The notes under the pieces were generated by a model. That model made no database searches, had not been told where the DNA came from, and saw nothing but the letters and a program-made list of their open reading frames with translations. A stretch of DNA of 63,969 nucleotides, the filler included, from Octopus bimaculoides (Eukaryota), in assembly GCF_001194135.2 (NCBI RefSeq). It is 6 parts of 5 records of this genome, joined end to end, with 100 filler letters (N's around TTAATTAATTAA, not from the genome) between each part and the next. Parts side by side here need not be neighbours in the genome. Positions count along the whole stretch, not along the records: positions 1 to 14,090 come from NC_068996.1; positions 14,191 to 43,652 come from NC_068999.1; positions 43,753 to 50,847 come from NC_068983.1; 3 more parts are not named here. The stretch is one strand, 5' to 3'. Shown piece after piece: positions 9,617-43,995 of the stretch. Position numbers and translations under genes: made by a program. Numbering within the stretch: the first letter of the stretch is position 1; every line of letters begins with the position of its first letter.

Positions 9617-9619
<3 letters not shown>

Positions 9620-10075
9620 TGAAATATATATACCACCTAAATGTGGCTAACCCTTAAGGGTTGATGCTACTATAGCTTGTAGCCCCAGGAAGACATCTCC
9701 TCCAGCTGGCTATTGACACACTATCTGTGCCCTATCAGTATTTGAAAAGGGAAGTCATCGTTCCCATCTAGCCTGACGTGATACACACGGACCCGTGTTT
9801 CTGGGTATTGACCCGTCCTCAGCGTGTGATAACCACCGGCTGGCGATGGGAAGTGTTTCTCAATGCAAATATATATACTTTTTCCAGTGACGAAAAGTCA
9901 CTGATCTCGAAAAAGTGGAAATAAGCAATAATGAATATCTGAGTGAGGTATAAACAGTAGCTGCACAATATCGTGAAATATATTTGCCACCTAAATGTGG
10001 CTAACGCTTAAGGGTTGATGCTACTGTAGCTTGTAGCTCCAGGAAGACATCTCTTCCAGATGGCTATTGGCACAT
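9617..10075 (-). mobile_element. Retrozyme-like / Penelope pLTR-like non-autonomous element: ~354-bp unit plus ~105-bp partial tandem copy
   Basis: TCGTGAAATAT...CCAGCTGGCTATTG occurs at 9617 and 9971; hammerhead inside the unit; homolog at 43790-43995. Confidence 0.75.
9784..9828 (-). ncRNA. Minimal type-I hammerhead ribozyme motif
   Basis: cacacg-CTGAGGA-c gggt caat accc a-GAAA-CACGGG-TC-cgtgtg; GUC site. Confidence 0.75.
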
Positions 10076-10319
10076 GTATATATTGTAAATTTATATATAC
10101 AGGGTGCGTTTTTTCTTCTTAGGGCACCTATTTCAAGAGCTCTAAATGGCTTCTAGTTTGCTTTTTGCTTTTTTTTTTTACCTTACTTTTCTGATAAATA
10201 TGTCAGATACCGGATTGACTCAGCAAATGAAAAGGTACGCTGTGTCTATTGCCTTAAGAGCACAGCATAATGAAACAGAAAGAGCTCCCTTCCTAAAATC
10301 TGCCCGATTTGCTCGAATA

Positions 10320-10380
10320 AAGGCGGTGCTCCAGCATGGCCACAATCAAATGACTGAGACAAGTAAAAGAGTAAAGAGTA
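10320..10380 (+). mobile_element. SINE family A 3' tail fragment
   Basis: AAGGCGGTGCTCCAGCATGGCCACAATCAAATGACTGAGACAAGTAAAAGAG. Confidence 0.8.
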
Positions 10381-10757
10381 TATCTATAGACTTGACCCAA
10401 CAGCGTACACACAAACAGATGTAAACACCCTGTCTTTTTATGCATTATTTTTGTGGACAGAAAGAGGGGTCATCAGGATTTCTTTTAGTCCTGTGCTGGG
10501 AATTCATCAGCAACCGAGTATTAGACAATGAATGTGTCTTTAGTTAATTGATTCTCGGCCATTTTTAACTTTATGTCACATGGGAAATTAAATGATATCA
10601 CTGATACACTTCGCATAAACAGTCTAAAAATAAAACTATATTTTAATTTAAAATTTTCTAAGATATATAGAAAATTATTGCTTGTTTTGTTTTATGTATT
10701 ATACTCTGGTGTAACAAGATTCTGAAATTTATTTCTGTAACACCAATTATAGGAAAA

Positions 10758-10797
<40 letters not shown>

Positions 10798-11142
10798 NNN
10801 NNNNNNNNNNNNNNNNNNNNNNNNNNNNNNNNNNNNNNNNNNNNNNNNNNNNNNNNNNNNNNNNNNNNNNNNNNNNNNNNNNNNNNNNNNNNNNNNNNNN
10901 NNNNNNNNNNNNNNNNNNNNNNNNNNNNNNNNNNNNNNNNNNNNNNNNNNNNNNNNNNNNNNNNNNNNNNNNNNNNNNNNNNNNNNNNNNNNNNNNNNNN
11001 NNNNNNNNNNNNNNNNNNNNNNNNNNNNNNNNNNNNNNNNNNNNNNNNNNNNNNNNNNNNNNNNNNNNNNNNNNNNNNNNNNNNNNNNNNNNNNNNNNNN
11101 NNNNNNNNNNNNNNNNNNNNNNNNNNNNNNNNNNNNNNNNNN

Positions 11143-11507
11143 AGCTTTATATTACATTACATTAATCCTATTTCGGCCAGAGTTCTTTCGTCACACTTCT
11201 GTGACATTATCAGTGGTCCTTTGCTTTCTTCTTTCTTATGTGTGTTCCACCTTGCTAACTATCAGCCATTTTGTATTTGAAAATGAAAAATACAATATAA
11301 AAAATAGTTAGCAAGGTGGGACACACATAAGGAAGAAGAAAGCAAAGAACCACTGATGAGGTCACAGAAGTGGACGAAAGAATTCTGGCCGAAATAGGAT
11401 TAATGTAATTTAATGTAATATAAAGCTGAAGCAAATTAACACCAAATATACAGTGCGTGTGTTTTTATTGGCTAAACTGGCAATATGACCATCCCCAAAT
11501 ACAACAA
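11143..11507. mobile_element. Short repeat family with internal fold-back (arms ~11143-11278 and 11288-11427) and a partial hammerhead-like core
   Basis: Inverted arms with mismatches; CTGATGA ggtca...tggcc GAAA at 11353-11394; homologous to 18135-18391. Confidence 0.75.
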
Positions 11508-13246
11508 CATCTGTTTCAACACATGATTTCACATCAAAACTTTTGCAAAACANNNNNNNNNNNNNNNNNNNNNNNNNNNNNNNNNNNNNNNNNNNNNNNN
11601 NNNNNNNNNNNNNNNNNNNNNNNNNNNNNNNNNNNNNNNNNNNNNNNNNNNNNNNNNNNNNNNNNNNNNNNNNNNNNNNNNNNNNNNNNNNNNNNNNNNN
11701 NNNNNNNNNNNNNNNNNNNNNNNNNNNNNNNNNNNNNNNNNNNNNNNNNNNNNNNNNNNNNNNNNNNNNNNNNNNNNNNNNNNNNNNNNNNNNNNNNNNN
11801 NNNNNNNNNNNNNNNNNNNNNNNNNNNNNNNNNNNNNNNNNNNNNNNNNNNNNNNNNNNNNNNNNNNNNNNNNNNNNNNNNNNNNNNNNNNNNNNNNNNN
11901 NNNNNNNNNNNNNNNNNNNNNNNNNNNNNNNNNNNNNNNNNNNNNNNNNNNNNNNNNNNNNNNNNNNNNNNNNNNNNNNNNNNNNNNNNNNNNNNNNNNN
12001 NNNNNNNNNNNNNNNNNNNNNNNNNNNNNNNNNNNNNNNNNNNNNNNNNNNNNNNNNNNNNNNNNNNNNNNNNNNNNNNNNNNNNNNNNNNNNNNNNNNN
12101 NNNNNNNNNNNNNNNNNNNNNNNNNNNNNNNNNNNNNNNNNNNNNNNNNNNNNNNNNNNNNNNNNNNNNNNNNNNNNNNNNNNNNNNNNNNNNNNNNNNN
12201 NNNNNNNNNNNNNNNNNNNNNNNNNNNNNNNNNNNNNNNNNNNNNNNNNNNNNNNNNNNNNNNNNNNNNNNNNNNNNNNNNNNNNNNNNNNNNNNNNNNN
12301 NNNNNNNNNNNNNNNNNNNNNNNNNCGTCATTTCTGTCATTAAGTTTACGCTGAGAATGTCAATGAATTGCAATGTCCAGCTCCTCAGATAATAATCCTT
12401 TTTATTATAGGCACAAAGTAGAAACCTGCAGTAAGTTGAATTTACTCCTTTCATTAATTGATACAGTCTTCGTAAATTTTGACTTCCTTATAAATACGAT
12501 CCAAACACAAGGTACACACACATATATGGGCCACTCGGACTCCCACCTTCTCCGCGAATAAGAATTCATCTTTTCTCTTCGTTCCTTTGCACCAAGTGGG
12601 CTCAACTCACTTCCTTTCTTCATCTGACACCAACCCCACACGGTTTCCCACACATCCCCTACATTCAACTTCCCCCTCCTTCCCTCCACCTACACACCTG
12701 TATGCTGCCTACCTCGGTACCCTCATCACACACACACATTACTATATGAACACTCGTACACACTGTCAGCTCATCATTCACTTCACACACCATTACACAC
12801 ACATCCACAATACCTTCTCACTCTACATACACTAGCACCGACCAGTTCTCAACACCTACACACCACACACCATTATCTACACACCTACACACAATCTTCA
12901 ATAAAATAACGTCACCATACATACATACAACTATACGAGCAGCCACACACCACTGTGTAACTCAGTATACATACCACACAGCATCAGGCACACTCCCACG
13001 CCCACACAAGCACATAATACTTGAACGCAGACAATATATACGCACACACGCAACATGCATAAACACACACAACACGCATAGACAAAGATAACTTTCGCCC
13101 ACAAACATACATAGTACACATGCACACTATTTGGTCACACACACACACATATTCACATGTGCACACATCATTTGAAAAAGTACACATCAACCACTACACA
13201 AACACACACGCACACACACACATACACACGCACACACACACACGCG

Positions 13247-13283
<37 letters not shown>

Positions 13284-42512: not shown

Positions 42513-42603
<91 letters not shown>

Positions 42604-43077
42604 GTCTGTCTCTCTCTCCCTCCCTCTCTCTATCTATCGGTCTGTCTGTCTGTCTCTCTCTCTGTCACCCACCCCTCCCCAAATGATATGCAGCAAAGTT
42701 TGATATATTGGGAAGATTCTACCATCGATAATACTGAGCTAATATTCATATTAATAGATATATTTATTACTAATAAAAATGGTGAAACTACATCTAATTA
42801 CACAAGCTATGCTGGACATGAGAACCTCGTATTAAGCAGACTCAGAAGTCGTAGTGGTCGAAAGTTCCCGTAATATTGTACTTCAAATGAAGTTTCTATT
42901 TCCAGTACAATATTTCCATTTTACTTATAACTGCGTTTATGAAACTCACTTTGTAAATACGAGGTTTGGAGTTCAGTCCTCCAATGTGGTATCTTAAGTA
43001 ATTCTAACATAACTGCGGCCGACCAAAGTGTTATGAAGTTATTCTGATGATAGTAACTGTGTGCAAGCCTGTTGTGC

Positions 43078-43121
<44 letters not shown>

Positions 43122-43345
43122 GGCAATTCTCTGCCCTATATCTATATATTGATAGTCTTCTCTTGGATGGCTAAACTGCAGTATTTTCTGCGGGACTATT
43201 TGTGACGCACATGGGATAATTTTGAGGAGGGATACGGAACTCACTAGTCGATAAATTTGTGGATGCTGATTTTTCTTATGTGATATGTGATGTCGCATGG
43301 TCAGATATGCATGAGTATATTAGCATTTTCAGATTTATTTTGTAT

Positions 43346-43403
43346 ATCATGCTGATGAGTAGAAAAGAATTTTATATTCTAATCACGAAACGTCGTACAT
43401 GAT
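43346..43403 (+). ncRNA. Type-I hammerhead ribozyme motif with canonical core
   Basis: atcatg-CTGATGA-gt agaa...ttct aatc ac-GAAA-CGTCG-TA-catgat; 6-bp helix I; G10.1-C11.1; GUA site. Confidence 0.75.
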
Positions 43404-43652
43404 GAACTAAAGGCAGGTTTGTTTTCGTTTTATTTTCTCTTCTGTTTTGTTTTATGTGTGCCATAAATATCGCCATCCGTTGGAGAAAAATTGTAGTTAG
43501 AATTAGTAGTTCTTTGACTGCTATTTCTAAATTTTCAGTATGTTGGTGAAGCAACTTATGCTGATCCCTATATGTTTATAATTATAAATGGTTTACCGAT
43601 AAAGGTTTTTTTGCATACTGAACTACTTGGCAAAATTGTTAATTATTAATTT

Positions 43653-43752
43653 NNNNNNNNNNNNNNNNNNNNNNNNNNNNNNNNNNNNNNNNNNNNTTAA
43701 TTAATTAANNNNNNNNNNNNNNNNNNNNNNNNNNNNNNNNNNNNNNNNNNNN
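43653..43752. other. Synthetic assembly join (N44-TTAATTAATTAA-N44)
   Basis: Same block as 14091. Confidence 0.95.
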
Positions 43753-43789
43753 CGACAGCCACTGACCTTTGTCTCTCTCACCAAGGTCA

Positions 43790-43995
43790 GTGGCTGTCGA
43801 ACGCCGACGAAGGGAAATAACCCTGAAATCCGGATCCGTTCGTGCTACAGATCATGGTGAGAGGGATAACTTCCCTTGGCAAACAGGACACAGTCGTGTG
43901 TCGATAAGCCAGCTGGAGGAGATGTCCTCCTGGGGCTAAAAGCAACAGTAACATCCACCCCTAGGGGTCAGCCACACTTAAGTGGCAATATACTA
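43790..43995 (+). mobile_element. Second copy of the 9617 retrozyme-like family
   Basis: Shares AGCCAGCTGGAGGAGATGTC.TCCTGGGGCTA...AGCCACA.TTA.GTGG with the reverse complement of 9617-9830. Confidence 0.8.
43798..43842 (+). ncRNA. Minimal type-I hammerhead ribozyme with perfect palindromic helix III
   Basis: cgaacg-CCGACGA-aggg aaataa ccct-GAAA-TCCGGA-TC-cgttcg; all helices Watson-Crick; U4C core variant; AUC site. Confidence 0.8.

Follow-up and report, generated by a model that had tools for sequence, protein, structure and literature searches.

A transcribed, hammerhead-bearing repeat family in Octopus bimaculoides as a candidate cephalopod retrozyme

Two short non-coding segments of Octopus bimaculoides DNA, one on each strand of the window (the whole stretch of 63,969 nucleotides, filler included, that was analysed), resemble each other and appear to contain hammerhead ribozymes. 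This raises the question of what kind of element they are and whether the ribozyme has a part in its spread. The answer that we consider probable is that each locus is a decayed insertion, with one ribozyme, of a repeat family that is transcribed and arranged head to tail in units of 354 bases. Most likely this is a non-LTR retrozyme family whose multimeric RNA is predicted to cut itself and which was likely copied into (TA)n by Penelope-like enzymes.

Two homologous copies and their predicted fold

The regions around 9617-9830 (minus strand, copy A) and 43790-43995 (plus strand, copy B) are homologous, as the earlier note on this DNA had proposed (blastn within the window, 80% over 177 nt, E 4e-39); those bounds, taken from that note, proved too small (Table 1). 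Identity between the copies is 67% across the 45-nt ribozyme and 82% across the 3′ module. The window is rich in microsatellites and includes what we take to be octopus SINE-like repeats; no tRNA gene was found in it.

Table 1. Features of the two loci, numbered along the window
Feature	Position	Strand	Details
Copy A, whole insertion	9614-10074	-	about 1.3 units
Copy A, one full 354-base unit	9615-9968	-	period 354; GC 0.44; non-coding
Copy A, upstream partial unit	9968-10074	-	107 bases, 92.5% identical to copy A 3′ end
Copy A, conserved 3′ module	9614-9731	-	four short predicted hairpins, z -2.1
Copy A, predicted extended rod below helix I	9761-9852	-	z -1.2 (decayed copy)
Copy A, predicted type I hammerhead	9784-9828	-	helix I 9828-9823/9789-9784; core CUGAGGA
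Copy A, inner helices		-	helix II 9815-9802 (C.A mismatch at base); helix III 9797-9792
Copy A, predicted cleavage	between 9790 and 9789	-	
Copy B with inverted piece	43753-44003		
Copy B, 5′-truncated unit, second subfamily	43770-44003	+	ends against (TA)n at same point as copy A
Copy B, inverted piece	43753-43769	-	17 bases, matching 43783-43799 exactly in inverted orientation; faces copy B head to head
Copy B, predicted extended rod	43770-43868	+	-50.8 kcal/mol, z -8.6
Copy B, predicted type I hammerhead	43798-43842	+	helix I 43798-43803/43837-43842; core CCGACGA (U4C)
Copy B, inner helices		+	helix II 4 bp with 6-nt loop; helix III palindrome UCCGGA
Copy B, predicted cleavage	after 43836	+	

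In both copies helix I has 6 bp, helix II 4 bp and helix III a single pair. Judged by the sequence, the motif is thus the canonical type I and not the minimal Penelope type; the earlier note had the type right and the minimal form wrong. The type I assignment is supported by a motif scan: the window contains 3 motifs with a helix I of at least 6 bp, whereas 200 base-shuffled windows had 0.03 on average and never 2 in one window. The descriptor was composed after inspection of both copies and allowed U4C. The third hammerhead is Penelope-like and lies 400 bases from copy B.

Copies A and B differ at 20 places in the 59 ungapped columns compared, and despite these differences 16 of 17 pairs are kept, 4 of them by double changes (two in helix I, one in the helix below loop 1 and one at pair 15.2-16.2). 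The joint chance of keeping the fold across 20 differences was 1.2e-4 in 300,000 random-substitution trials. The proposal that helix I keeps its pairing under different sequences is borne out. Helix II, in contrast to what had been proposed, does not covary: in the ungapped alignment its three G-C pairs are identical in A and B, beside the mismatch in copy A. The change of cleavage triplet, GUC versus AUC, had been counted separately and is the same event as the change in helix III, whose palindromic character was confirmed in copy B (self-duplex -10.9 kcal/mol) and not in copy A (CACGGG, not self-complementary, -1.5 kcal/mol). When three window rows were compared with shuffles, 95.4% of cells were paired, a value reached by 20 of 500 shuffles, whereas the double changes were equalled in 62 of 500. 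The window alone thus gives weak support for covariation, the double-change count on the three rows not exceeding that of the shuffles.

Could the hammerhead be a chance reading of a hairpin-rich repeat? The Rfam comparison suggested for both copies gave no hammerhead model at E up to 10 (2 and 8 matches, none a hammerhead), the minimum-energy folds of the copies do not form helix III, and the structure was derived from the same two sequences that were used in the test. All the same, such a reading is very improbable and already largely refuted by the excess of motifs over shuffled windows, by core letters identical at 10 of 11 though 15 of 45 ribozyme positions differ, and by independent family reads, which shift copy A towards the consensus core (see below). 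Run on the whole window, Rfam returned microsatellite and hairpin noise among the best 150 of 195 matches.

A transcribed head-to-tail family

The copy A unit was compared, at an 80% likeness limit, with 4 (X1, X15, X21 and X23) of the 24 matching runs listed. The comparison leaves aside X2 and others as well as 17 listed runs with small or partial shares of the unit, in organisms A-F, and none of these is taken as evidence of range. The run search named no matching run that is recorded as RNA, which is no evidence either way. X21 and X23 are raw RNA reads from one study under one organism label, the best DNA run having another label; X15, probably genomic, and X1 were compared as contigs. All 28 bins of the unit were covered in all four runs, and 4,247 contigs of X15 and 170 of X1 fell on it at 80% likeness, which is not a copy number. 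Head-to-tail joints put the unit at 351-354 bases, and they occur both among the raw RNA reads and in contigs that are likely genomic. Within copy A, 9720-9614 matches 10074-9968, and the corresponding joint in reads (9969 to 9616, going back 354) was found in 8 X21 reads with 5 starts, 5 X23 reads with 5 starts, 2 X15 contigs and 1 of X1. Together with the RNA reads, these results support the earlier idea of a repeat of about 350 bases that carries a ribozyme and codes for no protein. Closed into a circle, the copy A unit has 4-13 stops per frame and a longest open run of 62 codons; rolling-circle translation, conceivable for a length that is a multiple of 3, is ruled out by stops in every frame.

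The second subfamily is represented as well: the loose ends of 79 and 80 RNA reads, compared by eye, read as the copy B 3′ end running into the unit start, and match copy B 43877-43906 exactly. Strand inversions make up 6 of the 15 joints among those listed (X15, one contig each).

The family majority letters differ from copy A at 9796, 9818 and 9830. U7 is restored in 55 of 62 X21 reads and 32 of 33 X23 reads, and loop 1 reads UGU in 51 of 53 and 34 of 34, respectively. The second base of helix III is C in 79 of 85 (X21) and 29 of 34 (X23) reads, and U at 89% of X15 depth. Where copy A deviates from the canonical motif, most family reads thus agree with that motif, which argues against a chance fold. 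The helix III hexamers of the family, pieced together from single places and loose-end consensus lines among the variants listed, are self-complementary (CCCGGG and CUCGRG; the window adds UCCGGA), a property to be expected of ribozymes that cleave only in pairs. At 12 of the 39 places listed, copy A disagrees with at least 85% of the X15 depth, which amounts to no less than 3.3% of 364 bases. The partial repeat and copy A differ by 7.5%, about twice that value, which fits two units that were identical when inserted. The idea of A-to-I editing fixed through retrotransposition found no support, A>G/T>C not being in excess over C>T/G>A in family reads.

The family is transcribed at a modest level: 732 of 12.9 million and 480 of 11.5 million reads, or 57 and 42 per million (family level, one study), with first mates on both strands. 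At the 3′ end, 36 and 54 reads in X21 run into unique flanks, about as many as run into the next unit, so that part of the signal comes from read-through of host transcripts. The RNA ends expected at the predicted sites did not appear, neither as a pile-up of read ends anywhere on the unit, a weak indication either way in fragmented cDNA reads, nor as a dip in family read depth at the predicted cleavage site. Back-junction reads, expected for circular RNA, are present with joints at 351-354; since the same joint occurs in likely genomic contigs, they are no proof of circles, and tandem DNA accounts for them equally well.

These observations bear on the idea that the family is now SINE-like or satellite-like and its hammerhead a relic, its copies having come from linear read-through or from multimeric RNA, with neither cleavage nor circles involved. 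The lack of read ends at the cleavage site fits this, as do the likely damaging changes in both window ribozymes (one or two defects per copy) and the X15 summed depth, far greater on the 3′ module (up to 900,000) than on the ribozyme part (34,000-143,000); the middle of that module (9664-9741) has the highest family read depth. The depth difference is, however, also expected if divergent subfamilies fall below 80% likeness outside the 3′ module. Moreover, in most family reads the core, loop 1 and the palindrome of helix III are intact, and two subfamilies keep the same fold even though their rods are only about 50% identical. In the predicted rod of copy A, internal loop 1 (3 nt/1 nt) is succeeded by a helix of 5 bp (9836-9832/9782-9778); the predicted rod of copy B is strongly paired, with 0 of 200 shuffles as stable. 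Keeping one fold at such identity requires that the RNA itself was under selection, at least up to the time of the last bursts, and we regard a relic ribozyme as improbable.

In metagenome, viral and prokaryote genome contigs, the exact pattern of the conserved module had 0 matches. The sole metagenome match of the hammerhead-core pattern (L001) is GC-rich, with only 8-14 bases similar to the family, and was set aside as chance.

Insertion pattern and a proposed cycle

Both insertions stop against (TA)n at one shared internal point, where the 3′ module terminates, 176 nt (copy A) and 167 nt (copy B) past the predicted cleavage site. Copy A has 1.3 units and TA-rich flanks without a clear target-site duplication; copy B has an inverted 5′ piece, broken off by the gap at 43709-43752 that forms its 5′ flank, and by its sequence this piece is likely an inverted, 5′-truncated second copy. 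Each locus holds one hammerhead; no two consecutive complete units, and hence no array of two complete hammerheads, were found at either. Both are likely dead ends.

Penelope-like pseudo-LTRs carry type I hammerheads with palindromic helix III and occur as partial tandems with an inverted 5′ copy, and Penelope-like elements target AT-rich or (TA)n sites, with an insertion end internal to the RNA (PMC4209133; PMC8557442; PMC11167929). The loci could therefore be solo pseudo-LTR 3′ ends, truncated insertions of an autonomous Penelope-like element, the 354-base unit having no life cycle of its own. The common 3′ end at (TA)n, the partial tandem and the inverted piece are all hallmarks of such elements, the Penelope-like hammerhead of the window lies close to copy B, and pseudo-LTRs bearing type I hammerheads are homologous to retrozymes in frogs (bioRxiv 10.64898/2026.07.22.740005). 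RNA reads and contigs, however, show the unit joining its own start after 351-354 bases without any intervening reading frame, let alone one for RT or GIY-YIG, and the helix sizes of the unit are canonical, whereas metazoan Penelope hammerheads have a helix II of 7-8 bp, a helix I of 4-5 bp and a poorly defined loop 1. Among 11 chosen window frames, including the two next to the loci, which have gaps close by, no RT or GIY-YIG match was found (Pfam), nor was a partner element found in the window. Truncated pseudo-LTRs are thus an unlikely source of the loci, though somewhat less so than a relic ribozyme.

For the preferred reading, a retrozyme family copied by Penelope-like enzymes, we propose the following cycle, modelled in its RNA steps on known retrozymes. 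Arrays of at least two units would be transcribed, and neighbouring hammerheads would pair via their palindromic hexamers and cut after the NUC triplet. Helix III alone has a predicted energy of +2.5 to +4.8 kcal/mol, compared with -8.9 to -14.9 for palindromic hexamer pairing; being too weak alone, it may need two neighbouring hammerheads. A host ligase of the RtcB type would circularise the unit-length RNA, whose hairpin module would then be bound by an RT/GIY-YIG protein of Penelope-like kind. After nicking AT-rich DNA, this protein would begin to copy at a point some 170 nt downstream of the cleavage site. Copying beyond one unit, on a circle or multimer, would give copy A, and an early stop plus inversion copy B. 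In favour of this reading, Penelope-like families have been recently active in Octopus vulgaris (2026 repeat annotation); against it, Penelope-like insertion in vitro did not need hammerhead cleavage.

A bolder version, which we offer tentatively and hold to be possible rather than probable, is that the insertions record the whole proposed retrozyme cycle, with a fixed priming point about 170 nt past cleavage, more-than-unit copies from a circle and Penelope-type inversions. The helix III palindromes CCCGGG, CUCGRG and UCCGGA may serve as a pairing code specific to each subfamily, with assistance from another palindrome that covaries in the 3′ module, so that ribozymes would cut only next to partners of the same subfamily. 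If true, the family would directly test whether mobilisation is driven by Penelope and templated by circles, and cephalopod transcriptomes would gain a class of small circular RNAs that has been overlooked.

Comparison with known retrozymes

Retrozyme units range over 150-450 bp, head to tail, with target-site duplications, when present, of more than 4 bp; a canonical type I hammerhead has a helix I of 6 bp, a helix II of 4 bp and a helix III of 1-2 bp with a palindromic loop, and cleaves as a dimer. The octopus family has the canonical hammerhead, a 351-354-base unit, many copies, no coding capacity, a GC content of 0.44 and transcripts. In Cervera and de la Pena (2020, PMC7229834), metazoan non-LTR retrozymes measure 350-390 bp in mussel, 220-245 bp in coral and 330/350 bp in axolotl. 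They share the canonical type I hammerhead and a short, transcribed, non-coding head-to-tail unit of less than 50% GC; circles and cleavage are demonstrated for them and predicted for the octopus family. Most invertebrate motifs are reported to cleave as monomers, whereas the helix III of the octopus family, a single pair capped by a palindromic tetraloop, resembles that of axolotl HHR_Amex1.

The survey by Li, Clavereau and Pollet (bioRxiv 10.64898/2026.07.22.740005) covers 31 vertebrates, 3 insects and 1 coral, and no mollusc. Vertebrate retrozymes likewise show dispersed monomer or partial copies and pseudo-LTR-like features, with a Penelope partner proposed; an "active" locus there has two consecutive complete hammerheads, unlike the two window loci, and only 1 of 9 frog retrozyme dimers tested cleaved in vitro, a point against the preferred reading. 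Penelope pseudo-LTRs differ in that their hammerheads are minimal, the octopus unit being canonical and without an RT or endonuclease frame (PMC4209133; PMC8557442; PMC11167929). Penelope-like copying of retrozymes from circles is so far a proposal based on co-occurrence and pseudo-LTR similarity; the octopus insertions offer genomic handles on it, through their constant 3′ end, the inverted piece and the length of 1.3 units in copy A.

As to novelty, the earlier note knew of no description of the family. In the literature, preprints included, we found no cephalopod retrozyme, although Figure S6 of PMC7229834, on further invertebrate retrozymes, may include one and Repbase or Dfam may list the family as an unclassified repeat; ribozymes have 0 occurrences in the main text and supplement of the 2026 Octopus vulgaris repeat annotation. 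The kind, on the other hand, is well described, also in mussel, and widespread, so that the surprise to specialists is modest. The giant squid genome annotation lists 235 Hammerhead_1 loci (PMC6962438), also type I and in a cephalopod, given in the passages concerned as a bare count without family, unit or expression; unlike these matches, the octopus copies fall below the Rfam models. The octopus family likely extends retrozymes to cephalopods.

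Hammerhead fold of the two copies

We compared two homologous stretches of the window, copy A (minus strand, near 9617-9830) and copy B (plus strand, near 43790-43995), both located where the earlier note had placed them and 80% identical over 177 nt. The type I hammerhead claimed for each was recovered as an ungapped 45-nt ribozyme alignment with 15 differences, in which nearly all pairs are kept (11/12 in A, 12/12 in B) and 3 changes are double. With the helix below loop 1 added, 20 of 59 columns differ, 16 of 17 pairs persist, and double changes number 4. An equally good outcome arose in 1.2e-4 of 300,000 trials placing 20 substitutions at random, a null that is post hoc, because the structure was read from the same two sequences. 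In a pair-count test on three rows from the window, the share paired was matched by 20 of 500 shuffles and the double changes by 62 of 500. The window by itself thus gives weak support for the paired changes claimed earlier. Helix II does not covary, its three G-C pairs being identical between the copies. Scanning the window gave 3 type I motifs whose helix I reaches at least 6 bp; shuffled windows gave 0.03 on average.

Other details needed correction. In copy A, helix III lacks self-complementarity, and the difference in cleavage triplet (GUC versus AUC) is the 15.2-16.2 pair counted twice. Neither copy matched the Rfam hammerhead models. The base of helix II in copy A carries a C.A mismatch, and the core of copy B a U4C change, reported to give considerably lower activity in vitro (PMC3088659). 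By the definition in PMC4209133 (helix I of 6 bp, helix II of 4 bp, helix III of 1-2 bp with a palindromic loop), both copies are, judged from their sequences, canonical type I motifs, not the minimal Penelope type.

A transcribed family with a head-to-tail unit

Copy A holds a full unit preceded by a partial one (Table). The unit (GC 0.44; circular fold z -2.1) lacks any long coding frame, in agreement with the earlier description as non-coding. It has three parts: one rich in A and T, one predicted to fold as a long rod with the hammerhead at its tip, and a 3' module in which four short hairpins lie. The rod of copy B is only about 50% identical to that of copy A, yet has a fold z of -8.6. 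Both copies have their insertion end at the same place, against (TA)n, 176 nt (A) and 167 nt (B) past the predicted cleavage site. At its 5' end copy B meets, head to head, an inverted copy of 17 bases that is cut off by a gap and may be an assembly artefact.

Four of 24 listed public runs were aligned to the unit at 80% likeness: X21 and X23 (raw RNA-seq of an organism labelled A, from a single study, about 6% of each run covered), X15 (a large contig set of organism B, likely genomic; 4,247 contigs on the unit) and X1 (probably an RNA contig set). All 28 bins of the unit were covered in each. A head-to-tail junction leading from 9969 back to 9616, a step of 354 bases, occurred in 8 reads with 5 starts (X21), 5 with 5 (X23), 2 contigs (X15) and 1 (X1); among the listed X15 joints with letters between, 11 of 12 connect the two unit ends. 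Among the listed RNA loose ends (unaligned read tails), the two largest, with 244 and 190 reads, are identical to parts of copy B; therefore the B-like subfamily is the commoner in these RNA runs. Compared by eye, 79 and 80 RNA reads look like the 3' end of B continuing into a unit start.

Among listed variants, the family has U7 (55/62 reads in X21, 32/33 in X23) and loop 1 UGU (51/53 and 34/34) where copy A departs, and the second base of helix III is C in 79/85 and 29/34 reads and U in 89% of X15 depth. As read from these variants, the canonical motif is mostly retained where copy A departs from it. In listed loose-end consensus lines helix III reads CCCGGG (X15) and CUCGAG (X21, agreement only 0.59), and one form, in X1 (7 contigs), is non-palindromic; by chance, 36 of 256 tetraloops are self-complementary. 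Computed self-pairing of the palindromic forms is -8.9 to -14.9 kcal/mol, and helix III within a single molecule is unfavourable. A second palindrome, in the 3' module, is preserved between A and B through change on both sides within the loop; B letters are in the majority in the RNA runs (X21: 242/317 at 9654, 208/317 at 9657). It is possibly a second site of RNA-RNA pairing.

Other features of the window

The third hammerhead, 400 bases upstream of copy B in the window, has a consensus core (CUGAUGA, GAAA, GUA triplet), a helix I of 7 bp and a helix II that is long but weak; a T-rich stretch follows the motif. Its sequence shows no relation to the family, and it is probably what remains of the pseudo-LTR of a Penelope-like element. 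Four long inverted repeats, whose arms measure up to 305 bases and are 85-94% complementary, are MITE-like or inverted insertions, and one lies 220 bases from copy A. The tandem array derives from a dispersed SINE-like repeat. Two short frames that look like the C-terminal end of a reverse transcriptase of the LINE type had no Pfam match at E 0.1. The AT spacer, recurring five times between N runs, was rejected as a biological feature and is an assembly linker.

Table. Coordinates of features in the window
Feature	Coordinates	Strand	Remarks
Copy A full unit	9968-9615	minus	354 bases
Copy A partial unit	10074-9968	minus	107 bases, 92.5% identity
Copy A hammerhead	9828-9784	minus	
Copy B rod and 3' module	43770-44003	plus	
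Copy B hammerhead	43798-43842	plus	
3'-module palindrome, A	9648-9661	minus	perfect, 14 bases
3'-module palindrome, B	43956-43967	plus	perfect, 12 bases
Third type I hammerhead	43345-43404	plus	
Inverted repeats	8646-9391 (220 bases from copy A), 11143-11427, 7925-8215, 47672-47852		
Tandem array	1-568		period 93 bases, 92-95% identity
SINE-like repeat, other places	53006-53093, 54578-54667, 57245-57329		
Short frames	62998-63573	plus	
AT spacer	14135-14146, 43697-43708, 50892-50903, 58860-58871, 62233-62244		12 bases between two 44-base N runs

Proposed cleavage and copying, and relation to known retrozymes

In the runs aligned to the unit we found neither a pile-up of read ends nor a dip in depth at the predicted cleavage site. 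The head-to-tail RNA joints fit a circle or a tandem transcript alike; family RNA is modest (57 and 42 reads per million in the two raw RNA runs), and many of its reads enter unique flanks. An anole Penelope-like element is likewise reported to have given no reads ending at its hammerhead site, and inserted in vitro without need for hammerhead cleavage (PMC11167929); of frog retrozyme dimers, only 1/9 cleaved in vitro (bioRxiv 10.64898/2026.07.22.740005).

From the observed fold, family, head-to-tail unit, family-level transcription and insertion anatomy, a copying cycle can be proposed. Multimeric transcripts would be cut in dimer mode by the hammerheads, and the unit RNA joined by an RtcB-type ligase, as seen in vitro for axolotl and mussel retrozyme monomers (PMC7229834). 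A Penelope-like protein would then perform target-primed copying at an AT-rich target, starting inside the RNA; 31 Penelope-like families, recently active, are reported from Octopus vulgaris (PMC13282606), and PMC8557442 describes inversions of the Penelope type and a bias towards (TA)n. At least 3.3% of the bases of copy A depart from the family majority and 7.5% from its own partial repeat, yet at 9624 copy A and this repeat have in common a letter that is absent from 94% of X15 depth. This divergence and the common letter fit one template, a circle or a homogenised multimer, copied for 1.3 rounds and then left to neutral decay.

The ribozyme-bearing repeat family proposed earlier is real and well-supported, and its identity as a retrozyme is the most likely reading. 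The literature searched, of partial coverage, yielded no cephalopod retrozyme; in the annotation of the giant squid, 235 Hammerhead_1 loci are given as a bare count (PMC6962438), and one survey found twister candidates from cephalopods to be inactive (PMC11662667). A more far-reaching possibility is that mobilisation is templated by circles and that the subfamilies have a pairing code of their own. Compared at the level of sequence, it has the features of metazoan non-LTR retrozymes, which have been found in many invertebrates and, among named hosts, in coral, mussel (350-390 bp) and axolotl (PMC7229834, PMC7761336). SINE-like repeats elsewhere in the window suggest an octopus as the host; the kind is already known, and the family is a new member of it.
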